Source of the DNA: Alphaproteobacteria bacterium
GTDB lineage: Bacteria; Pseudomonadota; Alphaproteobacteria; SP197
Assembly (NCBI GenBank): GCA_965228895.1
Contig: OZ245842.1
Span: forward strand, 2,839,964 to 2,903,963
Direction: 5' to 3'
Length of the DNA stretch: 64,000 nt
The notes below the pieces were generated by a model. That model had not been told where the DNA came from. It saw only the letters and a program-made list of their open reading frames with translations, and made no database searches. A program made the position numbers and the translations under genes. Of this stretch, positions 3,060 to 60,644 are shown piece by piece; positions within the stretch are counted from its first letter, which is position 1; every line of letters starts with the position of its first letter.

Positions 3060-5707
<2,648 letters not shown>

Positions 5708-42922: not shown

Positions 42923-44062
42923 CTACCCGTCGGTTGTCTCGAACAGGGTGAGCACGCCGGTATAGGCATAGAGGCGGTCGAACGAGATCTCGCCGTTGCC
43001 GAAGAAACCAACCATCGGCACGTCGCCCAACACCTCGCGCACGATCGCCATCTCGCTCTGGGCGCCATCAAACATGTTGGGGCCGCGCGCCAGGCAGCTG
43101 AAGTAGAGACCTCCGGCCACGTTACCGGCGCGCTTGCGAACGTCGCCGACCATTCGCTTCAGATCGGCTTCCGCGGCCGCGCGGTCGCGGCGGCAGAACA
43201 TCAGGGCATCGCCCATGCCGACACGCTCGCCGATCACCACCGCGCCACTGTTGGGTTCGATGCCGACCAGATTGCGCACCAGATAATCACCGGTATCGGA
43301 TCCGGACACCGGCAGACCAACGTGAAGGGATCCCGACAATTGGCGCGGGTCCGAAATACCCTCAGTCGCCAGTTCCTCGACGAACACATCCATCGCCGGG
43401 CGGTCATTCAAACAATGAACGACGTTCTCATCGACCTTGGTCACCTGATGAATACCGCCCAGCGGCACGCAGCCCTGCGTTAAACCGGTGCTGACGCGCA
43501 CAGAGCTGTCGAAAAGAACACCAGAGATCTCTCGCTCGACCGGGCGCCCCGCCATCTGCATGGTTGCGCCGCGCGACGAACTTAAGCCACCGACCAGATA
43601 GCCGTCGGTATCGCGCGCCAGACCGGCGATCGCCTCGACCAGATTGGGCATACGCGGATCACCATGGACGACGGCGAAACTACCCTGCCCCATCGCGCCG
43701 CCGCGCCGGTCGTCGTAACTGCGGACCGCCTCCTCCGCGCTGGTGAAAAGGCTCAAGGCGTCTTCGGGAAACCTGCCGGTCATCGCCGCAACCGCCGGCC
43801 GGTCAAAGTACTCGCTGCCGGCTGCGCAGATTCCGATGCCGACCGTGCCGCACCAGCTCGTCACACCGGTCGCGGCGGCCAGGAACCCCGCGATTTCACC
43901 GAGGGCGTCGGCGAAATGATCGGTGACATAGACAAAGCCCAGCGTGTCGTCGTCGCGGTCGCCCAAAACCTCGGCAACCGATCGGGCGGCCTGCTGCCAT
44001 GTTTCCGCGCTGGCATGGGCAACGTGAAACTGGCCGGTCACAACGTCAGATGTTTCGTTCAT
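42923..44062 (-). CDS. FIST-domain sensory protein
   Basis: The product is 379 aa. The overall FIST_N/FIST_C pattern is present (…LGFVYVTDHFADALGEI…, …GFFGNGEI… near the C-terminus). This recognition is from memory. Confidence 0.55.
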   Translation of the reverse strand: MNETSDVVTGQFHVAHASAETWQQAARSVAEVLGDRDDDTLGFVYVTDHFADALGEIAGFLAAATGVTSWCGTVGIGICAAGSEYFDRPAVAAMTGRFPEDALSLFTSAEEAVRSYDDRRGGAMGQGSFAVVHGDPRMPNLVEAIAGLARDTDGYLVGGLSSSRGATMQMAGRPVEREISGVLFDSSVRVSTGLTQGCVPLGGIHQVTKVDENVVHCLNDRPAMDVFVEELATEGISDPRQLSGSLHVGLPVSGSDTGDYLVRNLVGIEPNSGAVVIGERVGMGDALMFCRRDRAAAEADLKRMVGDVRKRAGNVAGGLYFSCLARGPNMFDGAQSEMAIVREVLGDVPMVGFFGNGEISFDRLYAYTGVLTLFETTDG

Positions 44063-44182
44063 ATAACCAGAATAGGCTCGCCAACTGACGGGTCAACAGG
44101 ATCACGTCCTTCGCCTATAATGTGACCATGAGAGACCACATCACTTGCCGGCCGTGACCGCGCGATCAACGGCGGCATCACC

Positions 44183-44800
44183 GTGACAGCGAGATGCGGT
44201 TGGTTTCTGGGGTTCGCGTTGTCATGCCTGGTCATCGCACCGGCCACCGCCGAATCGATCACGGTCAAAGGACTGACCTTCACCGATGAGCTCGGCGGGT
44301 TTCGCCTGTTGGCGGCATGGGGCAGCGGTTCGCTCGAAGACCCGATCACGGTGGTCGAAGAAATCACCAGCACCAGGGGCGCCGTCTTGATGATCCGAGG
44401 CGTTGGCCCGCATACCGGCAACGCCATTCCGACCAACCATCCCGCCGGCTTCGCACTGCGCAAGATCGTCACCAACGCGACCAACCAGACCTGGACGTTC
44501 TTTGATATCGAGTTGCAGAAGTTGCTGGGTACACCAAGCGACATCTACGACGGGCTGTCGTTCGGCCAGGATGCGCAGGCCGGGCGGCCGTTTACCTCCA
44601 ATCGATTCGGCCAAAGCGTGTCGCAGGACGAGCCGCGCGATCACGTCACGTTTTTTGATGGCGTGGTCGAACCGGGCGAAACCGTCAGCATGGACTTCGT
44701 CATCACCGCAACCGGTTACGTCACAGAACTGATGCTGCTGCAAAAACCGAACCGCCCGGTCGCATCGATCGACGGCGGCGCCACGGACCACGGCGGATGA
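44183..44800 (+). CDS. Exported protein of unknown function, translationally coupled to the cyclase
   Basis: It has a GTG start and the signal peptide WFLGFALSCLVIAPATAES. The stop TGA overlaps the ATG of the next gene (ATGA at 44797-44800). Confidence 0.5.
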   Translation: MTARCGWFLGFALSCLVIAPATAESITVKGLTFTDELGGFRLLAAWGSGSLEDPITVVEEITSTRGAVLMIRGVGPHTGNAIPTNHPAGFALRKIVTNATNQTWTFFDIELQKLLGTPSDIYDGLSFGQDAQAGRPFTSNRFGQSVSQDEPRDHVTFFDGVVEPGETVSMDFVITATGYVTELMLLQKPNRPVASIDGGATDHGG

Positions 44801-46464
44801 TCGCGCGCATCAGACTGGGCTCCGGGCTGGTGCTTATGGTCTTTCTTGCCAGCCACCTGATCAACCACGCGCTGGGCATCCATTCTCTGGCCTGGATGGA
44901 GGCTGGCCGGCGTGTCTTCGATGGGGTTTGGCGCAGTACGCCGGGCACGGTCGTGCTGTGCGCGGCACTGGTCCTCCATCTGGGCCTGGTCTTCTGGGCG
45001 CTCTACCGGCGCAACAGCCTGGCCATGCCGCCACGCGAGTGGGCCCAGCTCTTGCTGGGGCTCACCATACCGCTGCTGGTCGCAGAACACGTGGCCGGCA
45101 CAAGGGGCGCCAACGAACTGTTCGGCGTCAACGACACTTATCCCTACGTTATCTATGCGCTATGGGTGGACGCGCCGTGGAAAGGCGTTCTGCAGTCGGT
45201 CCTGATCATCACCGCCTGGCTGCACGGCTGCTTGGGGATACACTTCTGGCTGCGCCTGAAACCCTGGTATCGGCGCTGGCAATGGTGCGCCTTCAGCTTG
45301 GCAATCCTGGTCCCCATCCTTGCCCTTGGCGGTTTTGTCGGCGCCGGCATTGACGTCGCGCGCTTGGCCAGTGACCCCGACTGGCTGCCCGAGTTTCTCG
45401 CCTCGACCGGCGTCGGGCGCGTCTTCGAACAGCTCTCAGCCTTCATGGCCCAAGCGCAACTCTGGACGATCGCCGTGGTCGTGGCCTTGGTCGCCACCGT
45501 TCTGCTTCTCAGATGGCTTCGCATGGCATTTGCCGCCCGGCGAAAAGCCCCTCGCCTGACCTACCCCAACGGTCAGGTGGTCGAGATCGCGCCGGGCTCG
45601 ACCGTGCTGGAGACCAGCCGCGCCGCCGACATTCCCCACGCCTCGGTTTGCGGCGGGCGCGGCCGTTGCTCGACCTGCCGCGTCCGGCTGGGCCACGGTC
45701 GAGATGATCTGGAACCGCCCGACGCCGATGAGCGCAAGGTCTTGGAGCGCATCGGCGATCCACCCCATGTCCGCTTGGCGTGTCAGCTTCGCCCGACCGC
45801 GGACCTTGCAGTCACCCCCTTGCTGCCCGCGCACGCCGGCCCCGCCGACGCGGTCATGCGCCAACGACCCGCCGGCGCCGGACGGGAACAGGAGATCGCC
45901 GTATTGTTTGCCGACCTCCGGGGCTTCACCACGCTGTCGGAAGCCAACCTTCCCTATGACACCGTCTTTGTCCTGAACCGCTATTTCGAAGCCATGGGCC
46001 ATGCCATCGAGGGCGCCGGCGGGCAGATCGACAAGTTTATCGGTGACGGCGTCATGGCGCTGTTTGGCGTCGACGGCACGATCGATAATGGATGCCGCCA
46101 GGCACTCGACGCGACGGAGGCCATGAGCCACGCGCTTGCCGCGCTCAACCGTTCGCTCGCCAAGGAGATTGAACAGCCGCTTCGACTCGGCATCGGCCTG
46201 CATGTCGGGCCGGCGGTGATCGGCGAAATGGGGTACGGCGAAACCATGCACATGACGGCAATCGGCGACGTCGTGAACACGGCGAGCCGGCTGGAGGGTG
46301 CGACGAAAGATCTGCGCTGCGATCTCGTTGTCTCAGAGCGTGTCGTGGAGCTGGCCGGCGTGCCCGAGATGCCCGGGTTGCCTCACGATCTGACGGTTCG
46401 CGGCAAGCGGGAAACCCTTCGGGTACGCGCCATCAGCAACCTCGCCGGCACACCAAAGTTATAA
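44797..46464 (+). CDS. Membrane [2Fe-2S]-ferredoxin-domain adenylate/guanylate cyclase
   Basis: About 240 aa of TM helices with conserved histidines (SHLINHALGIH, AEHVAG, WLHGCLGIHFW) come first. A plant-type ferredoxin domain follows (CGGRGRCSTCRV...LACQ). The protein ends in a class III cyclase core (IAVLFADLRGFT, KFIGDGVMALFG). Confidence 0.8.
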   Translation: MIARIRLGSGLVLMVFLASHLINHALGIHSLAWMEAGRRVFDGVWRSTPGTVVLCAALVLHLGLVFWALYRRNSLAMPPREWAQLLLGLTIPLLVAEHVAGTRGANELFGVNDTYPYVIYALWVDAPWKGVLQSVLIITAWLHGCLGIHFWLRLKPWYRRWQWCAFSLAILVPILALGGFVGAGIDVARLASDPDWLPEFLASTGVGRVFEQLSAFMAQAQLWTIAVVVALVATVLLLRWLRMAFAARRKAPRLTYPNGQVVEIAPGSTVLETSRAADIPHASVCGGRGRCSTCRVRLGHGRDDLEPPDADERKVLERIGDPPHVRLACQLRPTADLAVTPLLPAHAGPADAVMRQRPAGAGREQEIAVLFADLRGFTTLSEANLPYDTVFVLNRYFEAMGHAIEGAGGQIDKFIGDGVMALFGVDGTIDNGCRQALDATEAMSHALAALNRSLAKEIEQPLRLGIGLHVGPAVIGEMGYGETMHMTAIGDVVNTASRLEGATKDLRCDLVVSERVVELAGVPEMPGLPHDLTVRGKRETLRVRAISNLAGTPKL

Positions 46465-47736: not shown

Positions 47737-48129
47737 CTACTGAGCGTCCGGGCTGTTGGCTTTCAGATAGGCAATGACGTTGGCGATGTCGTCCTCCTTG
47801 GTCAGGCGGAACGTCATTTTGACGCCAGAGATGTATTTGGTCGGCCCGGCCAACCATTCGGTCAGTGTTGCTTCGTCCCAAACGATGCCGGATTCGGGCA
47901 GCTTGCCGGAATCGAGCGATCCCGCTTCGTTTGAACCCGCCGCGCTGCCGTAGACCCCAAACAAATTTGGACCTTGCTTCGGTGCGCCGCCTTGTTCGAT
48001 CGTGTGGCAGACCTTGCAGCGGTTGAACACCTTCTCACCTTGGGCAACATCGCCTTCGGCCCAAGCCGATTGCGCGGTGAGCCCAAGAGCGAGCGTGAGC
48101 AAAGATCCGAAAGCGGCAACACGTTTCAT
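47737..48129 (-). CDS. Periplasmic class I cytochrome c (c2-like)
   Basis: There is a signal peptide. CKVCHTIE is the haem-binding motif. The distal methionine lies in GVKMTFRLTKEDDIANVIAYL. Confidence 0.85.
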   Translation of the reverse strand: MKRVAAFGSLLTLALGLTAQSAWAEGDVAQGEKVFNRCKVCHTIEQGGAPKQGPNLFGVYGSAAGSNEAGSLDSGKLPESGIVWDEATLTEWLAGPTKYISGVKMTFRLTKEDDIANVIAYLKANSPDAQ

Positions 48130-48227: not shown

Positions 48228-48716
48228 TTACGATCCCGTGCACTCACCGCAGTTTTCGACCGGCAGATCCCTGGCCAACCATCCCGGACCGTCGCCGCTG
48301 CCGACCATGCCCTCGCCAATATCGTAGATCTGTTCAAACCCCTCGCCCTCCAGAAGGACATGCGCGATCGCGGAACGAACGCCGGCGGCGCAAATCAACG
48401 CGATCGGGCGTGACCTGTCGCCACCGGCAAGAGCCGTGACCTCTTCGACAAAATCCAGGTTCGGCAGACCATAGGCCAGAAACAGACTTGCCCTGCCAGC
48501 GCCCTCAGGAATACCGGTTTCGCGCCACTCCGATTCCGTCCGGATGTCGACAATCAGAAGCTCGCCCTGGCCAGACTGCTGCCATGCGTCCGGTGCCGAG
48601 AGCAGACCGTCGCCCTCCGCATAAGCCGGCGCAATAACAAAGAACACGAGCGCAAAAGCAAGGGATGGGCCGCGAACGGCCCATCCCCAGATCATCAAGC
48701 AGACGTTGGTTGTCAT
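48228..48716 (-). CDS. Exported single-domain rhodanese (sulfurtransferase)
   Basis: The start is the ATG at 48716. The signal peptide is ...LAFALVFFVIAPAYAEG. The active-site loop is CAAGVRS. LIVDIRTESEW is typical of the rhodanese fold. Confidence 0.75.
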   Translation of the reverse strand: MTTNVCLMIWGWAVRGPSLAFALVFFVIAPAYAEGDGLLSAPDAWQQSGQGELLIVDIRTESEWRETGIPEGAGRASLFLAYGLPNLDFVEEVTALAGGDRSRPIALICAAGVRSAIAHVLLEGEGFEQIYDIGEGMVGSGDGPGWLARDLPVENCGECTGS

Positions 48717-48729
48717 CGGTTGATGATGA

Positions 48730-51282
48730 TCAGTTTCGATACTCCTCGGGGATGAAGAGCAGCGAATCCACCTCGGCGCCAATATGACAGTCGATGCAGA
48801 ACGCCACCTTTTCTGTACCCTCCCCGTTTGTGGTGCCGACAGTCTTGCCGTTGGGCATGATCAGGGTGTAGCGCCAGTCATCGGAGTCGGCGTTAAATCC
48901 CGAAGCCATCTTCTCCATGACAAACAACGGTCCGGGCACCACCGTGCCCTTTGCCGTCACCGCGAAGCTGTCCTTGGCCAGCACGGCACCAGCAGGCATG
49001 GTGCCGCCGTTTTCGTACTCGCCATATGACTGCGCCGCTGCGGCGTCAGCGTAATTGTTCACGAAGCGTCCGCCGTGGGTGTACGACTTGTAGGGCACGG
49101 AGTTGTACTTTTCCCATCCGCTGTAGGCGGACGAGATGTCAAGACCGGTGCTGGACATCAAATTGGCCTTGGCATAGCCGACTTCCATCTGCGCCTTGAT
49201 GCAGTCGTAAGCCGCCACAGCCTCGTCATTGGTCAGTTCGATGTCGACGCCGGCACCGCAGCCGCCGCACGCACCACAGCCGCCACACGCACCGCAACCG
49301 CCGCACGCACCACAGGCTCCACAAGCACCACAAGCACCACAGCCGCCACACGCACCGCAGCCACCGCAAGCGCCACAGGCTCCGCAAGCGCCGCAGGCCG
49401 AGCAGGCATCGCAGGCACTGCAGCCCGCCGCCATGCCGGCCGCAGGAACCGCCTCCGGATTCTCCTGCAAGCTCGCGCCGCAACCGCCGCACGCGCCACA
49501 GGCACCGCACGCGCCGCAGCCGCCACAGGCTCCGCAATCGGCCCAAGCGATGCTCGGCACCACGCAACCGGTGTCGGCTTCTGCCGCACAACCGCCGCAT
49601 GCACCACAACCACCGCACGCGCCACACGCTCCGCAAGCACCACACGCGCCGCAGCCACCACAGGCTCCGCATGCACCGCATGCACCGCATGCACCGCATG
49701 CACCGCATGCGTCACAAGCAGAACATGCGCCGCAAGCAGAACATGCGCCGCAGCCTGCCGCCATGCCGCTTGGCAACGCTTCCGGGTTCTCATGGCTGGC
49801 GCCATCTTCGTCGTCGGACCCGTCGGATTTCTCACCGCGCGGTTCCCACCAGTCCTCGCCGTCGCGTTTGGCACGCACTGCAAACTTCATGGCGCCATTC
49901 GAGTCTTCCAGGCTGGCGCCGCAACATCCACCACACGCACCGCAGGCATCACAGGCCGCGCAACACGCCGAGCACGCATCACACGCGCCGCAAGCCGAGC
50001 ACGCATCGCAGGCACCGCAGCCCGCCGCCATGCCAGTCGGCAGGGCGTCCGGATTGTCGAGGCTGGCGCCGCAGCATCCACCACACGCACCGCAGGCATC
50101 ACAAGCCGCACAACATGCCGAACACGCATCACACGCGCCGCAAGCCGAGCACGCATCGCACGCACCGCAGCCCGCCGCCATGCCGGTCGGCAGGGCGTCC
50201 GGATTGTCGAGGCTGGCGCCGCAGCATCCACCGCACGCACCGCAGGCATCACAGGCCGCACAACATGCCGAACACGCATCGCACGCGCCGCAAGCCGAGC
50301 ACGCATCGCACGCACCGCAGCCCGCCGCCATGCCGGTCGGCAGGGCGTCCGGATTGTCGAGGCTTGCGCCGCAACATCCACCGCACGCTCCGCAGGCATC
50401 ACAAGCCGCGCAACACGCCGAGCACGCATCACACGCGCCGCAAGCCGAGCACGCATCGCAGGCACCGCAGCCCGCCGCCATGCCAGTCGGCAGGGCGTCC
50501 GGATTGTCGAGGCTGGCGCCGCAACATCCACCGCAAGCTCCGCAGGCATCACAGGCCGCGCAACACGCCGAGCACGCATCACACGCGCCGCAAGCCGAGC
50601 ACGCATCGCACGCACCGCAGCCAGCCGCCATGCCGGTCGGCAGGGCGTCCGGATTGTCGAGGCTGGCGCCGCAACATCCACCGCAAGCTCCGCAGGCATC
50701 ACAAGCCGCGCAACATGCCGAACACGCATCACACGCGCCGCAAGCCGAGCACGCATCGCACGCACCGCAGCCCGCCGCCATGCCAGTCGGCAGGGCGTCC
50801 GGATTGTCGAGGCTTGCGCCGCAACATCCACCACACGCACCGCAGGCATCACAAGCCGCGCAACATGCCGAACACGCATCACACGCGCCGCAAGCCGAGC
50901 ACGCATCGCACGCACCGCAGCCCGCCGCCATGCCAGTCGGCAGGGCGTCCGGATTGTCGAGGCTTGCGCCGCAACATCCACCACACGCACCGCAGGCATC
51001 ACAGGCCGCGCAACACGCCGAACACGCATCGCACGCGCCGCAAGCCGAGCACGCATCGCACGCACCGCAGCCCGCCGCCATGCCGGTCAAAGCACGATCG
51101 GCGATGGACAAGGAGGCGGGCATGGGAACGGCGGCCGGATTTTCGACCGCGCGTGGATTGACAAGGCGACAGCTGGCGCGACCACAAGGCGCTGCCGCAA
51201 CGCTGACGGCAAGCGCAACGCCGGCGCCCATAAAGGCCGGCAGCATCGTGCTCGACAGCAGATTACGTTTGAGTTCACTCAT
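48730..51282 (-). CDS. Sec-signal hyper-cysteine (Cys-x-x)n tandem-repeat protein with a C-terminal cytochrome P460-family haem-c domain
   Basis: GGGAGG lies upstream of the ATG at 51282. The N-terminal signal is LPAFMGAGVALAVSVAAA. Eight 50-aa units (MAAGCGACDACSACGACDACSACCAACDACGACGGCCGASLDNPDALPTG) are followed by two degenerate Cys modules. The C-terminal ~190 aa has DDWRYTLI and FCIDCHIGAEVDSLLFIPEEY, resembling P460 (NWAFYIF...CAACHKENAKTDMVFTQFYP, from memory). Confidence 0.75.
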   Translation of the reverse strand: MSELKRNLLSSTMLPAFMGAGVALAVSVAAAPCGRASCRLVNPRAVENPAAVPMPASLSIADRALTGMAAGCGACDACSACGACDACSACCAACDACGACGGCCGASLDNPDALPTGMAAGCGACDACSACGACDACSACCAACDACGACGGCCGASLDNPDALPTGMAAGCGACDACSACGACDACSACCAACDACGACGGCCGASLDNPDALPTGMAAGCGACDACSACGACDACSACCAACDACGACGGCCGASLDNPDALPTGMAAGCGACDACSACGACDACSACCAACDACGACGGCCGASLDNPDALPTGMAAGCGACDACSACGACDACSACCAACDACGACGGCCGASLDNPDALPTGMAAGCGACDACSACGACDACSACCAACDACGACGGCCGASLDNPDALPTGMAAGCGACDACSACGACDACSACCAACDACGACGGCCGASLEDSNGAMKFAVRAKRDGEDWWEPRGEKSDGSDDEDGASHENPEALPSGMAAGCGACSACGACSACDACGACGACGACGACGACGGCGACGACGACGACGGCGACGGCAAEADTGCVVPSIAWADCGACGGCGACGACGACGGCGASLQENPEAVPAAGMAAGCSACDACSACGACGACGACGGCGACGGCGACGACGACGACGGCGACGGCGACGGCGAGVDIELTNDEAVAAYDCIKAQMEVGYAKANLMSSTGLDISSAYSGWEKYNSVPYKSYTHGGRFVNNYADAAAAQSYGEYENGGTMPAGAVLAKDSFAVTAKGTVVPGPLFVMEKMASGFNADSDDWRYTLIMPNGKTVGTTNGEGTEKVAFCIDCHIGAEVDSLLFIPEEYRN
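49911..51081. repeat. Tandem direct repeat, 150-bp unit x ~7.8, inside the Cys-rich gene
   Basis: The anchor gcccgccgccatgcc recurs at about 50020, 50170, 50320, 50470, 50620, 50770, 50920 and 51070. In the one adjacent pair I compared, the units are about 95% identical at the DNA level. Confidence 0.95.
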
Positions 51283-51457
51283 AACCGAAGAAACCTCCCA
51301 AATATCCCAGTTGCCCTGCCCTCACGACAACGTGTCGACCGCTGCCTTTGAAAGTCGGCGAAACTATCGCCCCATAGCTCGAGGGTGCAGGGCGATGATA
51401 TCGACTGACTTCGACATGGAACCAGTGATTTCCCTTTCACGTTAGCGTGAGAATGTA

Positions 51458-52336
51458 GTGGTGAAAAAGCCAGGGCTAGTGCGGCTTTCCGGCCTAACAC
51501 TTGTAATCTTTGCAGGCATAGTGATGACGCCGGCATGGGCCCAGGACCCACCCCTGCCCGGCATGGACGTCATCGAGATTCCGGCCGGATCGTTTCTTGC
51601 CGGATCAACATCGGAAGAACGCGAGCGCGCCTATCAGCTCGACGAAGCTGCTTACGGCCACAGCCGCACCCGCGAACGCGGCTGGTACGAAGACGATGAC
51701 GACCTGCACGAGGTCTATCTCGACACCTATTGGATCACCAAGAATCTGATCACCAACGCCCAGTATCAGGTCTTTGTCGAGGCTACGGGCCATCGAGTCC
51801 CGGACATCGACAAGGAGACCTGGGACGGCTTCGGCCTGATCCACCCTTACGAAAGAACGCGTCAATTCGCCTGGACAGATGGTGTGCCGCCGACCGGCCG
51901 CGAGGATCATCCGGTGGTCATGGTCAACCATGCCGATGCAACAGCGTTCGCCGTATGGCTATCTGAGGAAACCGGTCAGACCTGGCGGTTGCCGAGCGAA
52001 ATGGAGTGGCAAAAGGCGGCGCGCGGCACGGACGGGCGGATGTTCCCGTGGGGCGACGAATGGGATCCCAACCTGGCGAACACGCACGATGCCGGCCCGT
52101 TTCGAACCGTGCCGGTGGGCTCTTTTCCCGAAGCCGCAAGTCCTTATGGCATGTTGGATGCCGCGGGCCAGGTGTTTGAATGGACGACGACCTTGAAACG
52201 CCCCGGCCGTTACTGGGTCAAGGGCGGGTCCTGGGATGACCGCGGGTGCGGCGTGTGCCGGCCAGCCGACCGGCACAGCCGCCCCGAGGACATTCAGCAC
52301 ATACTTGTCGGATTCAGGCTCGTGCTGGAACCCTGA
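51458..52336 (+). CDS. Exported formylglycine-generating-enzyme (FGE/SUMF1) family protein
   Basis: The signal peptide is LTLVIFAGIVMTPAWAQ. The FGE-sulfatase domain pattern is HPVVMVNHADATAFAVWLSE..WRLPSEMEWQKAARG...VKGGSWDD. The start is a GTG. Confidence 0.75.
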   Translation: MVKKPGLVRLSGLTLVIFAGIVMTPAWAQDPPLPGMDVIEIPAGSFLAGSTSEERERAYQLDEAAYGHSRTRERGWYEDDDDLHEVYLDTYWITKNLITNAQYQVFVEATGHRVPDIDKETWDGFGLIHPYERTRQFAWTDGVPPTGREDHPVVMVNHADATAFAVWLSEETGQTWRLPSEMEWQKAARGTDGRMFPWGDEWDPNLANTHDAGPFRTVPVGSFPEAASPYGMLDAAGQVFEWTTTLKRPGRYWVKGGSWDDRGCGVCRPADRHSRPEDIQHILVGFRLVLEP

Positions 52337-52647: not shown

Positions 52648-52836
52648 ACCCTTGATCTCCAATGTAAAAGCGGCCTTACCTGGCCGCGTGGGCCTCACCT
52701 GGCCTCGTGCGTTGCCACCATATGGTCATGAGGAATACGCAAGAAAAGGCACAAACGATCATCGCCCAGTCACATATGCTTCACGTAATCGATCACAATC
52801 TTGAAAGGTGGTGGCGCTGACGCCATCCTCACGCCC

Positions 52837-53592
52837 ATGGCAATGACAGAAACCGCGACACCGGGCCTGGACGTCGATCTACCGCGACGGGTCCAGCTCG
52901 ATGATTTGGACCGCAGCGACCTCGAAGAGATGCTCGAGGCCGGGCGTGATGTGCTCGAATGCTACCGGGTGCTGCGCAAAAACAACGACAACGTGGTCGG
53001 CGAACTGCTGCGCGACGTCGAAACCTTCTACCAGTGGCAGCACTATCCAAAGGGTGACATCTTCGACCGGGAGACCGGCAGCCAGTTCTATTATCACGCC
53101 CACCCTAAGGCCAGCCGGCCGGGTGAGCATGGCCATTTCCACACCTTCATGCGCGCCAAAGGGATGCCCAAGGGCACCGAACCCGTCCCTTACGACGGCG
53201 ACAAGGTGTGGCCCTTGGGTCCCGATGCGCTGAGCCATCTGATCGCGATATCGATGGATCCAAAGGGGTATCCCATCGGCTTGTTCACGGTGAACCGGTG
53301 GGTCACCGGGGACACGTGGTATGCCGCCGAGGATGTGGTGAAGATGGTCGACCTGTTCGACATCGATCACGCCCGCCCCTCCTGGCCGGTCAACCGCTGG
53401 GTCACGGCGATGATGCGCCTGTTCCGTCCGCTGGTGCATGACCTCGTAAGGGAACGCGATCTGGTCATGGCGGCATGGCGCGACAGTCATCCGGGAACCG
53501 ATGTCTATGCCGACCACGGTCTTGAGATCACGTCGGCCAGCACGATTTCCGTCGAGAAGCAGATCACGCGCATCCGCAGTCTTCTCGCCTAG
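52837..53592 (+). CDS. Hypothetical protein with a His-rich HAHP...GEHGHFH motif
   Basis: The coding look is good, with no signal peptide. The motif YYHAHPKASRPGEHGHFHTF suggests a metal site (cupin-like?). I do not recognise the family. The start is the ATG at 52837. Confidence 0.5.
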   Translation: MAMTETATPGLDVDLPRRVQLDDLDRSDLEEMLEAGRDVLECYRVLRKNNDNVVGELLRDVETFYQWQHYPKGDIFDRETGSQFYYHAHPKASRPGEHGHFHTFMRAKGMPKGTEPVPYDGDKVWPLGPDALSHLIAISMDPKGYPIGLFTVNRWVTGDTWYAAEDVVKMVDLFDIDHARPSWPVNRWVTAMMRLFRPLVHDLVRERDLVMAAWRDSHPGTDVYADHGLEITSASTISVEKQITRIRSLLA

Positions 53593-54053: not shown

Positions 54054-54572
54054 TCATTCGGCAAAGCCTATCCATGGCGAATCGGGCTTACGGCTGAATG
54101 CCGCCGAGCCATCCGCGACCTGCGCCTGAACGGTCTTCCAGTTATCGGCGCCGCGCGTGATGCGCGAACGCATGTCGGAGGTCCATTGGCCTTTAACCTG
54201 TTCATCCCAATTCAGATAGAGCTTGTCGTCGACAACGCTCCACGCCGTCGCGGGATCGACTTCGGCGGCATACGCGCCAACCGACAGCGCATAGGCACAC
54301 CAACCGCCGAACTGCGGCGCGTAGGCTTCGGGATCGCCGGCAAAGAGGTCACGGTTTTCGGCGCTGGCGAAATGCCACGTCGCGCCGTTCCAAGCATGGC
54401 TCAGTGTGGGATCGCCTTGCACGGCTTCACCTTGGGTGAAGTAAGCGACCGTGTCATAGCCACCAATCGCGACGCCATCGGGCGTCACATTCACTGAGCT
54501 GTCGGCATGCGCCCAATGGGTGAAGAGCGCCGACGCCAGCATCACACACAGCACGAAAGCGATTCGTCGCAT
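54054..54572 (-). CDS. YHS domain-containing exported protein (Cys form of the YHS (seleno)protein family)
   Basis: From the ATG at 54572 the signal peptide is MRRIAFVLCVMLASALFTHWAHA. GYDTVAYF, WHFASAENRDLF and FGGWCAYAL follow. Confidence 0.6.
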   Translation of the reverse strand: MRRIAFVLCVMLASALFTHWAHADSSVNVTPDGVAIGGYDTVAYFTQGEAVQGDPTLSHAWNGATWHFASAENRDLFAGDPEAYAPQFGGWCAYALSVGAYAAEVDPATAWSVVDDKLYLNWDEQVKGQWTSDMRSRITRGADNWKTVQAQVADGSAAFSRKPDSPWIGFAE

Positions 54573-54719
54573 AGCCCGATCCTCTCCGGTCGTTTCGCGC
54601 AACATCATCGGCCAAAGTGACCTCGACGCGCCAATCGCCGTTGGCCACCATGTCGATAGCCTGGTGCTATGGTCCGACCATCGCATCACCGGCGCCAACC
54701 CGCTGCAGGAATCCTGCCG

Positions 54720-55532: not shown

Positions 55533-56786
55533 CTAGCGATCGACCACCACCTGACCCTGACGCACGGCTCGGTAGAGTGGGTTACGTCCGACCCAATAGG
55601 CGAGATCGCCCGGGCGCTCGATGTTCCAGATCGCCAGATCGGCCGCCTTGCCCACCTCCAGTGTGCCATGCGTCGCGCCCATGCCGAGCGCAAGGGCGGC
55701 ATTGCGCGTCACGCCAGCCAGTGCCTCCTGGGGCGTCAACCGGAACAAGGTGGCCGCCATGCTGAGCATCAACAACAGCGACAACACCGGTGAGCTGCCC
55801 GGGTTGGCATCGGTCGCGACGGCAATCGGCACGCCCCGTTCGCGCAACAGGTCGACGGGCGGGAGCTTGGTTTCGCGCAGGACATAGAACGCACCGGGCA
55901 GCAGCACCGCCACCGTACCGGCCTTTGCCATCGCCTCGACACCGTCGGCTGAGAGATACTCCAGATGATCGGCCGAGAGCGCACCGTAGTCCGCGGCAAG
56001 CGCGGCGCCTCCCATGTCGGAAAGCTGTTCGGCGTGGATCTTGGTCGGCAGTCCAAGGTCGCGCGCCTTCATAAGGACACGTTCGGTGTTGGCCAGGTCA
56101 AAGCCGATGGTTTCACAGAAGACGTCGACGGCATCGGCCAATCCCGCGCGTGCCGCCGCCGGCATCATCTCGTCGACGACAAGGTCGATATAGGCATCTT
56201 CGCGGTCCTTAAAGTCTTCCGGCAAAGCATGCGCACCAAGGAAAGTTGTCTTGATCGTCACCGGCCGCATCTCCGCAAGCCGACGTGCCACCGATAACAT
56301 CTTCAGTTCGCTCTCGGTCTCCAGACCGTAACCAGATTTGATCTCAATCGTCGTCACGCCTTCCGCGCGCAACACATCGAGACGCGGTAACGCCAGGTCG
56401 ACAAGTTGATCGTCACTGGCGCTGCGTGTCGCACGCACGGTCGAGAGGATGCCGCCGCCTGCTTGTTGCAGCTCGGCATAGCTGGCGCCGTTGAGCCGCA
56501 TCTCGAACTCCTGCGAACGGTCACCGCCGAATACGAGATGGGTATGACAGTCGATCAACCCGGGCGTCACCCAGCGTCCGTCGCCATACCATACGTCGTG
56601 CGCCAACGACGACGGCTGGCCAGGCAAGTCCGAAGCCGGACCGGCAAAGACGATCTCGCCGTCGGCAATAGCCAAGGCGCCGTGGTCGATGGCGCCATAC
56701 CCGTCCTCCCCTGGCAGCATGGTCGCCAGGCGCACGTCCAGCCACAGCGTATCCCACATGGTTGCCACGCTTTCCTTTTCGATCAT
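55533..56786 (-). CDS. hutI: Imidazolonepropionase
   Basis: [12 protein letters not shown] is present, along with the downstream HutI pattern ([34 protein letters not shown]). The start is either 56786 or the ATG at 56759. Confidence 0.9.
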
Positions 56787-56892
56787 GAAGTGGCACGCTT
56801 ATGCGGCTTTGCGCCGCTGTGCAAGGTGTCGACTGACAAGATGGTGGTGGTTCTGCGCTGCGTGGCGAGTGTCGGCGCGAGATTGGGGAGCC

Positions 56893-58266
56893 ATGGATTT
56901 TTTTGCCAAGTCCGCCCTTTTATCCAGGGGTTGGGCGCAGGACGTGTTGTTGCGAACCGACGACGACGGTCTGCTGAGCGAGGTTCGCAGCAACGCTCGA
57001 CCGACACGCTCGTCCCTGCGTTTGGCCGGCCCGGTTATGCCCGGCATGCCAAACCTCCACAGTCACGCGTTTCAGCGCGCCATGGCCGGCCTTGCCGAAA
57101 GCGCCGGTAAGGAGCCCGACAGTTTCTGGACATGGCGTGAGGTCATGTACCGGTTCGTGAGTCGGCTTGACCCCGAGCAACTGGGTGCCATCGCCGCGCA
57201 GCTCTATCTGGAAATGCTGAAGGCCGGCTATACGTCGGTCGCTGAGTTTCATTACTTGCACCACCAGCCGGGTGGTCGCCCGTATGACGACTTGGCGGAG
57301 ATGGCGAACCGCATTGTGCGTGCCGCCCAGCAGACCGGCATCGGTCTGACCTTGCTGCCGGTGCTCTACGCCTATGGCGGGTTCGGCGGCAAACAGCCGG
57401 CGCGCGGCCAGGCGCGGTTTATCAACGGCGCCGACCGGTTCTTGAGACTGGTGCAGGAGTTGAAGGCGCGTCACGACAACAAACTCAACATGCGGATCGG
57501 CATCGCGCCGCATTCGCTGCGCGCCGTCACCAAGGGACTTCTTTCGGAAACACTGACCGGCCTGAACCGGATGGACGACACCGCGCCGGTGCACATTCAT
57601 ATCGCCGAACAAACGCGCGAAGTCGAAGACTGCCAAGAGTGGTCGGGCATGCGACCTGTGACGTGGCTCTATAACCACTTCAACGTCGGGCCGCGCTGGT
57701 GCCTGGTGCATGCCACCCATATCAACCGGATGGAAGCCTGGATGGTCGCAAACAGCCAGGCGGTCGTCGGTTTGTGCCCGACAACGGAAGCCAACCTGGG
57801 CGACGGCATCTTTCCGCTTGGCCTATATCTGCGCGGCGAAGGTTCGTTCGGCATCGGGTCGGACAGTCACATCTCCGTCAGTCCGATCGAGGAACTGCGC
57901 TGGCTTGAATACGTGCAGCGGCTGCGTCGCGAGATTCGCAATGTCGCGGTCACCGACCGCCAGCGCCATGTCGGCATGCGGCTGTGGCACGATACCGTCG
58001 CCGGCGGCGCCCAAGCGCTTGGCCAGCCGGTTGGCGGGCTGAAGATCGGCAACCGCGCAGATTTTATTGTCGTCGATCCCAACCATCCGCTGCTGATTGG
58101 TCGCGAAGGTGCGACGTTGGTCGACTCGCTGGTTTTCTCCGGCAACCAGAATCCGATAACCGATGTTTTCGTCGGCGGCGAACAGGTGATCACCGACGGT
58201 TTCCACGAACGCGAAGAGTCGATCAACCGGCGGTTCCGCCGCGCCATCAACCAACTTCACGCCTAG
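56893..58266 (+). CDS. hutF: Formimidoylglutamate deiminase
   Basis: The product starts MDFFAKSALLSRGWAQDV. PGMPNLHSHAFQRAMAG and VHIHIAEQTREVEDC are present. It is divergent from hutI. Confidence 0.85.
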   Translation: MDFFAKSALLSRGWAQDVLLRTDDDGLLSEVRSNARPTRSSLRLAGPVMPGMPNLHSHAFQRAMAGLAESAGKEPDSFWTWREVMYRFVSRLDPEQLGAIAAQLYLEMLKAGYTSVAEFHYLHHQPGGRPYDDLAEMANRIVRAAQQTGIGLTLLPVLYAYGGFGGKQPARGQARFINGADRFLRLVQELKARHDNKLNMRIGIAPHSLRAVTKGLLSETLTGLNRMDDTAPVHIHIAEQTREVEDCQEWSGMRPVTWLYNHFNVGPRWCLVHATHINRMEAWMVANSQAVVGLCPTTEANLGDGIFPLGLYLRGEGSFGIGSDSHISVSPIEELRWLEYVQRLRREIRNVAVTDRQRHVGMRLWHDTVAGGAQALGQPVGGLKIGNRADFIVVDPNHPLLIGREGATLVDSLVFSGNQNPITDVFVGGEQVITDGFHEREESINRRFRRAINQLHA

Positions 58267-58512
58267 AACGGACCAAACATTGTAGTCGGTCAGCGTTTGC
58301 CGGCACTTCGGGCAAAACCCAGCAACATTCAACATGTAAGCAATATTCGCAAACTATGACAGCCGTCACACCGTTCTTTCTCGCGTAGGTTGCGACTCAT
58401 TAGTATTGTCAATCCCGCCAACTGCTCTATCGCGGGTTGTGGTCGGCTGTTTCCCCGGCATACGCCCCGGCTGAGCGACTTGATTAAGACAAAATCTGGA
58501 GGGACTTGGATT

Positions 58513-58992
58513 ATGTCTTTTGGACGCCGAGACGTTTACGACCGACGGAGCGAGCCACGCACCGATATCCTGCAACGGGTCAGCCTAGTCTTCGGAGAAA
58601 AAGATGCGACGGCGACTGGGTTAATCCGCAACATCTCGATGAGCGGCCTAAGGTTTGTCGCCGACACGCCGCTCAACCTGCCGCGCCACGTAACCTTGGT
58701 CTTCGGCAACGGCGAGCGCTTCGACTGCGATGTCGTGCGCGAGGAAAACGGTACGGAGTTCGGTTTGAAGTTCGCCGACCTCGGCGCCTTCGGCCGCTCC
58801 GAGGCTAAGGAGAGCATCGACGCAGTCTATCAAATCACCAAAAGCCGCTCGCCCATGGACATCTACAACATGATGGAGCGGGTCGAATTTTTTGGTGACG
58901 AGGAACTCGAGTCGGCAACGCGCGACTATGCCGCCGCCTATGATCACATGATCGGCCTTTACCGAAAGCGGGTCTTTGCGCAGCAAACGTAG
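58513..58992 (+). CDS. PilZ domain protein (putative c-di-GMP receptor)
   Basis: TGGAGGG lies upstream of the ATG. RRSEPRTDIL is an RxxxR-like motif and IRNISMSGLRF is an N/DxSxxG motif. Confidence 0.65.
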   Translation: MSFGRRDVYDRRSEPRTDILQRVSLVFGEKDATATGLIRNISMSGLRFVADTPLNLPRHVTLVFGNGERFDCDVVREENGTEFGLKFADLGAFGRSEAKESIDAVYQITKSRSPMDIYNMMERVEFFGDEELESATRDYAAAYDHMIGLYRKRVFAQQT

Positions 58993-59081
58993 TGCACACC
59001 GGGCTCATTGCCCGCCGGACCGCAACCAACCCGGGCACGAGCGCCACAGCGGCGAAAGCGGGTTCTCTCGATGTCATGCGG

Positions 59082-60644
59082 TCAGACGTTCATCGCAAAC
59101 AGATCCGCGGGCATAAATCGACGGAACCCGCCATCGCGCACCAACGTGGCGATGGTTTCGATGTCGGGCGCGAAAAATCGGTCTTCGTCATAAAAGGGCA
59201 CGCGTTCGCGTACCAGGTTCATCGCGCCGGCAAGCTTTGCCGAGGTGTGAAGCGGCTTTCTGAAATCGATACCTTGGGCGGCGGCCAACAGCTCGATCGC
59301 GGTAATCGCGGCTGCGCTATCGGCCATGGCGAGCAGCCGGAATGCGCCGTGGGTCGCCATCGAGACGTGGTCTTCCTGGTTGGCTGATGTCGGCAGGCTG
59401 TCGATGCTGGCCGGTGCTGCCTTCTGTTTGTTCTCGGCGGCAAGCGCGGCAGCCGTCACCTGGGCGATCATGAAACCGGAGTTGACGCCGCTGTCGTCGA
59501 CCAGGAACGGCGGCAGGTTACTCATCCGGGCATCGGTCAGAAGCGCGATGCGGCGCTCACTGAGCGAACCGATCTCGGCCAGCGCGAGCGCCAGGTTGTC
59601 GGCGGCAAGCGCAATCGGCTCGGCGTGAAAGTTTCCGCCAGAGAGCACATCACCGTCGGCGGCAAACACAAGTGGATTGTCGGTAACACCGTTCGCTTCG
59701 CGCGTGATGATATCACCGGCAAAGCGCAGATGGTCGAGGCACGCGCCCATCACCTGGGGCTGGCAGCGCAGCGAATACGGATCCTGCACACGATCGCAAT
59801 CGACATGGGACTTGCGGATCTCGCTGCCGTCGAGCAGATCGCGGTAGAGTGCCGCGATGTCCTGCTGACCTCGTTGCCGGCGTACGGCGTTGATGCGCTC
59901 GTCAAACGGGGCGTCGCTACCGAGCGAGGCGTCGATACTCATGGTGCCGGCGATGACGGCGGCGGCGAAGACGTCGTGGATGGCCAGCAGGCCACCCGCC
60001 GCAAGCGCGGTCGACACCTGGGTGCCGTTCAGCAGCGCCAGACCTTCTTTGGCATCGAGTTGAAGCGGCGCCATGCCGAGCGCTTCAAGGCCCTCCTCCG
60101 CCGGCATCGATTTGCCGGCGACCTTGATCGACCCGACGCCGATCAACGCGGCCGAGAGATGGGCCAGCGGCGCCAGATCACCGGACGCGCCGACCGACCC
60201 TTGCTGCGGCATCCGCGGCAGGGCGTCCGCATTGTAAAATGCCAGAAGCGCTTCGATGACCTCGCGCCGACACCCGGAGAAACCCTGGCTGAGCGCGTTG
60301 ATTTTGAGAGCCAGCGTCCGGCGCACGACGGCATCGGGCAGCTCGGCACCGACACCCGCCGCGTGGCTCAAGACGATACGGCGCTGCAGGTCGCGCAGAC
60401 GGTCATGCGGGATCGAGGTGTTGGCCAGGCTGCCGAAACCCGTGTTGATGCCATAAACCCGCTCGGTCCCGTTGGCGACCGCCTGGACCAGATCGGATGC
60501 CCGTTCGATCGCAGGCCACGCGTCGTCGTCTATCGTCAGGCGGTTTCCCGCGTCACCAAGCACGGCAATATTGCTGAGCGTGAGCTGGCCGGGCACCAGC
60601 CGAAAGTCATTGGTCATCGTTTCGATCTGCACCACCAGGGGCAT
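59082..60644 (-). CDS. hutH: Histidine ammonia-lyase
   Basis: GSVGASGDLAPLAHL is the MIO-forming ASG triad. The product is full length at about 510-520 aa. The start is either 60644 or the ATG at 60617. Confidence 0.95.
   Translation of the reverse strand: MPLVVQIETMTNDFRLVPGQLTLSNIAVLGDAGNRLTIDDDAWPAIERASDLVQAVANGTERVYGINTGFGSLANTSIPHDRLRDLQRRIVLSHAAGVGAELPDAVVRRTLALKINALSQGFSGCRREVIEALLAFYNADALPRMPQQGSVGASGDLAPLAHLSAALIGVGSIKVAGKSMPAEEGLEALGMAPLQLDAKEGLALLNGTQVSTALAAGGLLAIHDVFAAAVIAGTMSIDASLGSDAPFDERINAVRRQRGQQDIAALYRDLLDGSEIRKSHVDCDRVQDPYSLRCQPQVMGACLDHLRFAGDIITREANGVTDNPLVFAADGDVLSGGNFHAEPIALAADNLALALAEIGSLSERRIALLTDARMSNLPPFLVDDSGVNSGFMIAQVTAAALAAENKQKAAPASIDSLPTSANQEDHVSMATHGAFRLLAMADSAAAITAIELLAAAQGIDFRKPLHTSAKLAGAMNLVRERVPFYDEDRFFAPDIETIATLVRDGGFRRFMPADLFAMNV

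Follow-up and report, generated by a model that had tools for sequence, protein, structure and literature searches.

An exported cytochrome P460-type protein with a long poly-cysteine arm, an extreme member of a widespread marine alphaproteobacterial subfamily

Introduction

The nearest known proteins to the one described here are the cytochromes P460 (CytL; N. europaea, 2JE2/2JE3; M. capsulatus, 6HIU; Nitrosomonas sp. AL212, 6AMG) and the cytochromes c'-beta (6HIH, 7S5O, 8BRK). The gene is located on the minus strand of a 64,000-nucleotide stretch of an alphaproteobacterial genome (assembly GCA_965228895.1, contig OZ245842.1, positions 2,839,964 to 2,903,963; hereafter the window), and its product combines a P460-type domain with long arrays of (Cys-x-x)n repeats. 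Cytochromes P460 have been studied as sources and sinks of NH2OH, NO and N2O. Their superfamily, P460/c'-beta, is marked by a beta-sheet fold, mono-His ligation of haem c, a homodimeric state and a 460-nm Soret band of the Fe(II) form.

P460 proper is distinguished by a cross-link between haem and a lysine, Lys70 in the N. europaea protein (NeP460), Lys78 in McP460 and Lys106 in NsP460, while c'-beta has Met or Phe (PMC11928373, Table 2). Catalytic competence of P460 is associated with a distal carboxylate, Glu96 in NeP460 and Asp102 in McP460 (PMC11928373). The window protein resembles P460 in its C-terminal CxxCH, in an invariant Lys at the cross-link position and in its predicted periplasmic location, and possibly in a distal carboxylate, for which there is a candidate; an adjoining cytochrome c gene is also as expected for an NH2OH- or NO-oxidising P460. 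It differs from characterised P460 and c'-beta proteins in sequence, identity being only 15-25%, in an extra N-terminal helix with a conserved Cys, and above all in a poly-CxxC arm of 30-900 residues, which is absent from all characterised members. Hosts differ as well, being marine heterotrophic Alphaproteobacteria here and nitrifiers or methanotrophs in the case of characterised P460.

A second point of comparison is the SoxAX and SoxYZ system, in which SoxAX couples thiosulfate oxidatively to a carrier Cys on the GGCGG arm of SoxY. Shared features would be a periplasmic haem c enzyme, flexible Cys flanked by Gly/Ala, and electrons passing to cytochrome c; rhodanese-like genes are frequent in sox clusters, and CNPC arrays are fused to SoxA/TsdA-like domains in other phyla. 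In the window, however, enzyme and carrier would form one polypeptide in which the carrier is repeated ~ 150-fold, the haem domain is P460 and not SoxA, and soxB, soxCD and soxYZ are not nearby.

Architecture of the protein

It is very probable that the locus contains a real gene, encoding an exported P460-type mono-haem c domain behind a poly-thiol (Cys-x-x)n arm of ~ 610 amino acids (aa). A first-pass annotation, made by a model from the sequence alone, had proposed a minus-strand open reading frame (ORF) of 850 aa with a GGGAGG ribosome-binding site, and both were found, together with the ATG start (Table 1). Its estimate of about 155 Cys, mostly at every third residue, agrees with our count of 155, in which the Cys-to-Cys gap equals 3 in 123 of 154 cases. 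The acidic spacer and the two modules of GAC/GGC/SAC/DAC triplets were likewise located as proposed. Of the eight 50-aa units that had been described, each with 13 Cys, the Cys number holds, while the array turned out to comprise seven full units and a truncated one. The globular C-terminal part, estimated at ~ 190 aa, measures 173 aa.

Table 1. Positions of the P460 gene, its parts and neighbouring genes in the window.
Feature	Position	Strand	Remarks
Periplasmic class I cytochrome c (CycA/c550-like)	47737..48129	-	downstream
Periplasmic single-domain rhodanese	48228..48716	-	downstream, same operon; probable start MTTNV; active-site CAAGVRS
ORF, signal/anchor, poly-Cys arrays and cytochrome P460 domain	48730..51282	-	850 aa + stop; complete, ATG start
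Cytochrome P460-type haem domain	48733..49251	-	aa 678-850, 173 aa
CIDCH, predicted haem c attachment motif	48784..48798	-	aa 829-833
Lys770 in VLAKDSF	48973..48975	-	family-invariant; aligns with haem cross-linking Lys70 of N. europaea P460
Array module 3	49252..49470	-	aa 605-677; GAC/GGC/SAC/DAC triplets
Array module 2	49471..49767	-	aa 506-604; GAC/GGC/SAC/DAC triplets, broken by CVVPSI element
CVVPSI	49549..49566	-	counterpart of Cx[VI]PR[LI], the mid-array element conserved in the family
Acidic Cys-free spacer	49765..49914	-	aa 457-506; ends in another NPEALPSG leader-like motif
Eighth unit, truncated	49906..50031	-	aa 418-459
Seven identical 50-aa units	50032..51081	-	aa 68-417; 13 Cys each; start GMAAGC, end GASLDNPDALPT
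N-terminal Sec-type signal peptide or signal anchor	51190..51282	-	aa 1-31; from N-termini of 36 relatives, by inspection
GGGAGG ribosome-binding site	51294..51299	-	11 nt before ATG
Periplasmic FGE-sulfatase-fold protein	51458..52336	+	divergent; PF03781, 143.6 bits; GGSWDDxGCG[VI]CRPA
DUF6969 protein	52801..53592	+	cytoplasmic by inspection; His-rich YYHAHP..GEHGHFH

The repeated unit, MAAGCGACDACSACGACDACSACCAACDACGACGGCCGASLDNPDALPTG, is present in seven exact copies, and the eighth copy departs from it after ...GGCCGASL. On the DNA level, Tandem Repeats Finder (TRF) gives 7.9 copies with a period of 150 nucleotides (nt), 96% identical. The leader-like motif NPxA..P...G(M/L)AAGC, found in 10 copies, stands ahead of each window unit.

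By inspection, a long hydrophobic stretch comes after K/R in the N-terminus (MSELKRNLLSSTMLPAFMGAGVALAVSVAAA), which is devoid of an RR motif, in agreement with the Sec-type signal without twin arginine noted earlier. Export by Sec, followed either by cleavage or by N-terminal anchoring, is very probable. The hydrophobic N-terminal motif of the family, [KR]xxLL[ST][ST]Tx[IVL]P..G.G, is unusually conserved for a signal peptide, given that domains of relatives are ~ 50% identical. This conservation hints at a retained membrane anchor or at a specific role in sorting or recognition.

The arm region (aa 68-677) is 25% Cys and contains only four aromatic residues and one His. This is the classical composition of metallothioneins, with 123 CxxC in a matrix of G/A/S/D/N/P, and in composition only the arm would pass as one. 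The main rival to the function proposed below, and only a little less likely than it, is that the arm is a periplasmic metallothionein-like store or buffer for soft metals (Cu(I) most likely; Zn, Cd, Hg) held as thiolate clusters, the P460 haem being either functionally separate or a redox gate for metal release. Metallothioneins and copper storage proteins (SmtA, MymT, Csp1, and fungal Cu-MTs) share with the arm the high Cys content, CxxC/CxC spacing, small-residue matrix, absence of aromatics and plasticity of copy number, and Csp1 is exported too. Typical metallothioneins are 5-20 times smaller, whereas the arm is also Sec-exported, built of strict period-3 CxxC/CNPC repeats, and fused to a haem enzyme. 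Sequence homology to these proteins was not detected: no metallothionein family was matched in Pfam or NCBIfam, and none was present among the inspected phmmer matches of the arm. Judged by such comparisons, the arm is not homologous to any metallothionein family. Two further features do not favour a metal store, namely that conservation outside the Cys is much tighter than a metallothionein would ordinarily need, and that Sec export to an oxidising compartment disfavours free thiolates unless metal loads at once.

The C-terminal haem domain

The C-terminal domain qualifies as a member of the P460/c'-beta superfamily, as the first-pass annotation had suggested. Pfam PF16694 (Cytochrome_P460) was reached with 29.3 bits against a cutoff of 27, a narrow margin, with aa 735-839 covering positions 19-120 of the 125 in the hidden Markov model. 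Searches of PDB sequences with the domain, as a single sequence and as a profile, gave no match, and the assignment to P460 for this reason needed a comparison of folds. The AlphaFold2 model of the domain, based on 26 family sequences (predicted local distance difference test, pLDDT, 90.6), displays the beta-sheet fold characteristic of the superfamily. Foldseek comparison of this model with the PDB disclosed eight significant matches, all of them cytochrome c'-beta or P460.

The motif F-C-x-x-C-H is invariant in 26/26 family sequences, and CIDCH of the window protein aligns with CAACH of NeP460. Attachment of haem c is predicted at this motif; the single CxxCH near the C-terminus and the signal-like N-terminus fit the superfamily. 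Profile-sequence alignment (hhalign) was done with an N. europaea P460 sequence identical to 2je2_A. It places the invariant Lys770 (VLAKDSF) on Lys70 (TVTVKELV), at a probability of only 38%, and the near-invariant Glu of MEKM (aa 790) on Glu96, in a gapped, low-confidence stretch of the same alignment. By alignment the domain would thus fall into the Lys-bearing P460 class, with Glu790 as a candidate distal carboxylate.

Coding frame of the array

The Cys frame is confirmed as the selected frame. Among the seven full units 13 DNA columns are variable, all at codon position 3 and all synonymous in this frame. Compared with their consensus, the units show 30 synonymous and 0 non-synonymous changes, while random change would yield ~ 24% synonymous ones. 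An independent ENA assembly of a 99.08% identical strain (L001) has the same array organisation, and its ORF differs from that of the window by 54 substitutions, every one synonymous in the Cys frame, and by one in-frame 27-nt indel (49684-49710) within array module 2. Only 6/54 of these differences are outside the eight-unit array (aa 68-459), and because most represent reshuffled unit variants, this result is not fully independent of the comparison within the array. Concerns raised with the first-pass annotation, that the array could be an assembly artefact or that another frame could be the conserved one, are in this way answered.

It may be argued that this is not one gene at all, that the array is non-coding or belongs to an antisense ORF, and that only a 152-aa P460 is made. 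Public annotation of the locus indeed consists of a truncated 152-aa P460 and a 725-aa antisense ORF; in the window, the antisense "shadow" ORF extends over the array at 49229-51445 (+) and encodes 738 aa with PQPPHAPQ... repeats. This antisense frame, the best among the rivals, is also mostly synonymous (synonymous:non-synonymous 27:3 among units and 45:8 against the L001 strain). However, it only looks constrained, because its third codon positions coincide with those of the Cys frame and the synonymous bias is inherited, and against its three and eight non-synonymous changes the Cys frame has none.

The synonymous/non-synonymous test alone did not settle the frame, which was decided by the family architecture and by the need for a signal peptide. 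In > 60 related loci a single uninterrupted ORF runs through signal peptide, Cys array and haem domain. Furthermore, covalent attachment of haem by cytochrome c maturation (Ccm) takes place in the periplasm, and the 152-aa product would have no signal peptide and could not receive it there. The ribosome-binding site and the ATG, too, stand ahead of the Cys frame. A remaining point in favour of separate genes comes from L002 (= L006), a 74% relative with an even longer array (~ 985 aa in total, including signal peptide and domain), in which a single 5-nt deletion relative to sister units, near 4206-4230, splits the ORF; this break may reflect an error in the assembly of long reads, a pseudogene or switching by slippage. 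Taken with the preceding evidence, the reading of the array as a non-gene or an antisense ORF is largely refuted, and we consider it extremely improbable.

In a short-read metagenome-assembled genome with 97% identity (L005), the sequence breaks off within the array, 293 nt short of the start of the domain.

Family distribution and array variation

The fusion was initially regarded as singular, and in this respect the first-pass annotation has to be revised. The window protein is an extreme member of a large uncharacterised marine subfamily in which the poly-CxxC arm is the norm. A search with the domain returned 316 close cluster representatives, most relatives having precomputed PF16694, and in a scan of one genome per species > 552 species-level genomes were found to encode the subfamily. 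Carriers are nearly all marine Alphaproteobacteria (Rhodospirillales, Kiloniellales, Sneathiellales, Thalassospiraceae), and the cultured ones include Aestuariispira insulae (CECT 8488) and Pelagibius (sp. Alg239-R121). At least ten Cys precede the domain in 61/65 complete loci; the number reaches 159 at most, and the median is 35 Cys in 218 aa. A short member, P0016, measures 254 aa.

Spacing in arrays of relatives is very largely C-x-x-C, and CNPC is the top motif (1096 of about 1500). The usual order of segments is the N-terminus [KR]xxLL[ST][ST]Tx[IVL]P..G.G, array A, the mid-array element Cx[VI]PR[LI] (in 38/56 loci), array B, the helix ELTxAEAxAAYxC, and the P460 domain. Members of the window's clade (L002, L007, L009) contain hybrid GAC/CNPC units in which unit boundaries, GASLD...TG(M/L)AAGC, are unchanged, and the Pro-free arrays of the window can on this basis be considered homologous to the CNPC arrays.

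Family lengths and the indel between strains show that array copy number expands and contracts rapidly, which recalls amplified metallothionein genes. At the same time, length variation of this kind (9-160 Cys, with in-frame indels between strains) is linker-like, and a structural role has to be weighed: the arm could be a disulfide-stapled stalk or cross-linker with no chemical role of its own, which keeps the haem domain at a distance from the inner membrane or joins protein molecules into polymers by disulfides. The position of the arm, between the conserved N-terminal hydrophobic segment and the enzyme domain, suits a stalk, periplasmic CxxC pairs are known as good substrates of DsbA, and CNPC could form regular Asx-Pro turns. 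Linkers are, on the other hand, normally rich in P/A/T/S/E/K, and one with 25% Cys would be unprecedented and costly; the number of Cys in the window unit is odd (13). Arrays at both termini of SoxA/TsdA-like proteins, and not only between anchor and domain, also do not fit a stalk, while the association with rhodanese, redoxin and FGE-like genes, both described below, suggests that the thiols are chemically serviced. We therefore regard a purely structural arm as improbable.

As the first-pass annotation had stated, the combination of P460 and poly-Cys is undescribed. Literature searches for P460 with a Cys-rich arm, for the repeat strings and for periplasmic metallothionein found nothing relevant, and the 2025 review of the P460 superfamily does not mention a poly-CxxC arm. 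The P460-type domain itself is known; what is new is its association with an undescribed and widespread poly-thiol module.

Array module on other proteins

Exhaustive phmmer search with the window arm (aa 1-676) gave few true relatives, the remaining matches being mostly collagen-like Gly-X-Y noise. The true relatives are fragments of the family, a member of the KCGAC type, and two proteins with a like N-terminus and array followed by another C-terminus. In the metagenomic proteins P0154 and P0198, the N-terminus of the family, the ENP leader motif and Cys arrays are combined with a different, Pfam-less C-terminal region that ends in ...WRYTLS and has no CxxCH; these proteins may be an offshoot without haem, or calls that were cut short. 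A collagen-like (Gly-X-Y)n nature of the arm itself was considered and rejected, as only short GAC/GGC runs are present in modules 2-3, the main units are made of G/D/S/A, and relatives have CNPC.

A word-indexed search with a natural CNPC array was more productive and yielded 1184 clusters, most with PF16694. In a distinct set among them, a mono-haem cytochrome c domain of SoxA/TsdA/CCP-like type (PF21342, up to 47 bits) is enclosed by arrays at either end, and further CNPC arrays flank a small unknown domain in sources named as Myxococcota and Nitrospinota. The SoxA-like domain aligns weakly with Rhodovulum SoxA, and the conserved Cys of its MINFC motif falls on residue 114 of 1h31_A, which we take to be the Cys ligand of SoxA haem 1. 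The arm is thus a mobile module, found also on a second haem-c fold and in other phyla, and since it occurs on both P460 and SoxA/TsdA-like domains, at least two folds of reactive periplasmic haem protein carry it. Such steady attachment would be left unexplained if the arm were a metallothionein.

Genes located near non-P460 array proteins include a TlpA-like redoxin, an FGE-fold gene and cytochromes (L094/L095), and Cox11 with a cytochrome c (L093); the latter neighbourhood, in another phylum, is compatible with a role in metal storage. In L091 (6133-6699), and also in L096 and L098, a periplasmic TlpA-like redoxin is directly upstream of the array-flanked SoxA/TsdA-like cytochrome. The redoxin is called as two fragments, and its continuous frame reads FWATW-TGA-PHC, so it is probably a UxxC selenoprotein thiol-disulfide oxidoreductase. 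A chlorite-dismutase-like gene follows the array protein in these three loci. In the array-flanked SoxA-like protein P0403, a C-terminal Gly-rich hydrophobic stretch followed by RRRNK resembles a sorting or anchor signal and suggests cell-surface display in its lineage.

Gene neighbourhood

Neighbours of the P460 gene were counted by unbiased ORF clustering around 76 loci. DUF6969 proteins were found in 33 of them, FGE-like proteins (FGE, formylglycine-generating enzyme) in 32, cytochrome c in 24, a Sel1 protein in at least 12 and rhodanese in 9. Dsb/TlpA, copper and sox genes were not enriched. The rhodanese directly downstream of the window gene is conserved in its closest relatives, and the cytochrome c encoded beyond it is a likely redox partner.

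The FGE-like gene is nearly always divergent from the P460 gene. Its product has the FGE-sulfatase fold and, like FGE, a Cys pair after the GGS[WFY] motif, although its closest solved relatives are ToxD and CalU17 and not FGE. The motif GGSWDDxGCG[VI]CRPA is present in 32/32 FGE-like partners, and its pair is CxxC where true FGE has the Cu-binding Cx4C. Searches against NCBIfam did not reach any equivalog for this neighbour, and no sulfatase gene was found in its neighbourhood or enriched around the 76 loci. The full FGE-like/DUF6969/P460 set recurs in L088, and the FGE-like/DUF6969 pair occurs also without P460.

DUF6969 is a highly conserved family (5354 matches) with the invariant YYHAH...GEHGHFH and no signal peptide. 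It is often translationally coupled to the FGE-fold gene, also in loci without P460 (L089). Its confident AlphaFold2 model has no structural neighbour in the PDB, and a literature search for DUF6969 found nothing.

This setting raises the question of whether the arm is a substrate for post-translational modification (PTM), the FGE-like enzyme, possibly together with DUF6969, converting arm Cys into, e.g., formylglycine or cross-links; once mature, the arm would no longer be a simple poly-thiol. The candidate recognition elements would be NPxAxP...G(M/L)AAGC, CNPC (a partial CxPxR) and CxVPR[LI]. Supporting this, the two genes are the most enriched neighbours, with a regularly divergent FGE-like gene, and GCG[VI]C is invariant at the site of FGE's catalytic Cys pair. 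The leader-like motif precedes every window unit, and of the 13 relatives with NPxA..P, 12 have FGE/DUF6969-linked loci, a count that is not phylogenetically controlled. An FGE-fold gene is also found near a Nitrospinota-type array protein, arms of most relatives are rich in C-x-P (CNPC) and so potential substrates of an enzyme acting on CxPxR, and recognition by an enzyme would fit the lack of any non-synonymous change outside the Cys codons. On the opposite side, the motif is without the Arg of CxPxR, and the arrays of the window have no CxP whatsoever, yet the FGE-like neighbour is kept. In addition to the differing spacing of its Cys pair, the FGE-like protein of L095 has no such pair, the FGE-like/DUF6969 pair is missing within 10 kb in half of the loci and exists where there is no P460, and DUF6969 appears cytoplasmic, whereas the FGE-like protein and the arm are periplasmic. 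Modification of the arm as its main role is in our opinion a rather poor prospect, about as improbable as that of a mere stalk.

The neighbourhood bears also on the arm as a metal store. Genuine FGE is a Cu(I) enzyme in which Cu is held by a Cys pair, and the FGE-like neighbour keeps a pair at this site; a YHS-domain protein and a ZIP transporter are nearby. The former, at 54054-54698 (-), matches NCBIfam NF041384 "YHS domain-containing (seleno)protein" with 144 bits, and the transporter is located just beyond it in L001. Copper or zinc resistance, chaperone and efflux genes are, conversely, not enriched in the 76 loci.

The flanks (42923-46464 and 55533-60644) also encode a FIST-domain protein, two amidohydrolases, an aromatic amino-acid (histidine) ammonia-lyase and an adenylate/guanylate cyclase that contains a 2Fe-2S ferredoxin domain. 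In relatives L085-L088, DUF6969 is adjoined by urocanase and hut genes. Flanking genes, hut included, are probably background synteny unrelated to the P460 arm. Inspection of sequences upstream of 36 family genes for an FNR/NnrR-type box (TTG-N8-CAA) revealed no conserved site.

Proposed function of the arm

We tentatively favour the arm as a haem-coupled poly-thiol reaction partner, an interpretation that, taken as a whole mechanism, has somewhat less than an even chance of being correct. The arm would supply many CxxC thiols, densely set and flexible, with which an open-site haem could react within the same molecule; the haem would bind or oxidise small N- or S-species. Homology to P460 would point to NH2OH or NO as the substrate, and analogy to SoxAX/SoxY to sulfide or thiosulfate. 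Arm thiolates could catch an oxidised intermediate as S-nitrosothiol or as persulfide/thiosulfonate, and a neighbouring Cys could resolve the trapped adduct to a CxxC disulfide. Electrons would leave through the co-operonic cytochrome c. Periplasmic thiol-handling partners would unload or reset the arm, here possibly the rhodanese and the CxxC-bearing FGE-like protein, and in other phyla TlpA-like (seleno)redoxins.

The {FeNO}6 intermediate of P460 is attacked by nucleophiles. Circumstantial evidence for the haem-coupled reaction partner comes from the occurrence of the module on reactive haems of more than one fold, from the cytochrome c and periplasmic rhodanese as operon partners in the window's clade, from the CxxC invariant in the FGE-like neighbour, and from TlpA-like redoxins that adjoin array proteins in other phyla. 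The first-pass annotation had named metal buffering, sulfane-sulfur carriage and an NO sink as candidate roles. Gene context speaks to some degree for haem-coupled redox chemistry of thiols or sulfur, and metal binding is compatible with it. Arrays of iron-sulfur centres, in the form of an Fe-S "wire" or a rubredoxin-like poly-Fe(Cys)4, were considered as well and set aside, as Sec export and the lack of any supporting gene argue against them.

Several points weigh against the proposed mechanism. Evidence for any chemistry of the arm is circumstantial, its composition suits a metallothionein equally, and the correspondence with Lys70 depends on the low-probability hhalign match. Rhodanese is directly downstream in only 7/68 loci with enough downstream sequence, and FGE-like/DUF6969 genes are present in about half of loci, in addition to their occurrence without P460. 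CxxC pairs in the oxidising periplasm are expected to be oxidised by DsbA, and with no reductase of the Dsb/TlpA type enriched around the alphaproteobacterial genes, it is hard to see how an oxidised arm would be recycled in these bacteria. Finally, a loose thiol brush would not account well for the strict conservation at non-Cys positions (N-P in CNPC; units free of non-synonymous change), which points instead to a defined structure or to recognition by an enzyme, and this keeps both the structural and the PTM readings alive.

In a broader form of the same proposal, the (CxxC)n/CNPC array would be an unrecognised and widespread periplasmic module, an enzyme-serviced poly-thiol "battery" or carrier arm on haem-c domains of different folds. 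We put this forward with the same reserve as the mechanism, as a possibility somewhat short of even.

Biological significance

If the proposal is correct, a single polypeptide could hold from dozens to > 100 persulfide or S-nitroso adducts or metal-thiolate sites, with dedicated upkeep by a CxxC FGE-fold protein, rhodanese and Sec-containing TlpA-like redoxins, and the module would be a new kind of protein-based redox or sulfur store. As an enzyme-serviced store for redox equivalents, sulfur or metal common to haem proteins, it would approach a new category. In any case, a periplasmic protein with 25% Cys challenges the view that the oxidising periplasm disfavours free thiols, and points to unknown thiol, sulfur or metal chemistry in this compartment.

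The module has so far escaped notice, as gene-calling programs either cut it short or annotate the opposite strand. The failure of annotation is systematic, with a signal-less 152-aa P460 and an antisense ORF called in its place and short-read assemblies breaking inside the array. Protein clusters with the module number ~ 1200, come from different phyla and include at least two haem folds, so that insight into it would serve to annotate a whole class of genes. As cultured hosts exist, questions about the arm are directly testable. The most widespread marine alphaproteobacterial branch of P460 has a large module that is absent from characterised enzymes, and its physiology may therefore differ from the nitrifier paradigm.

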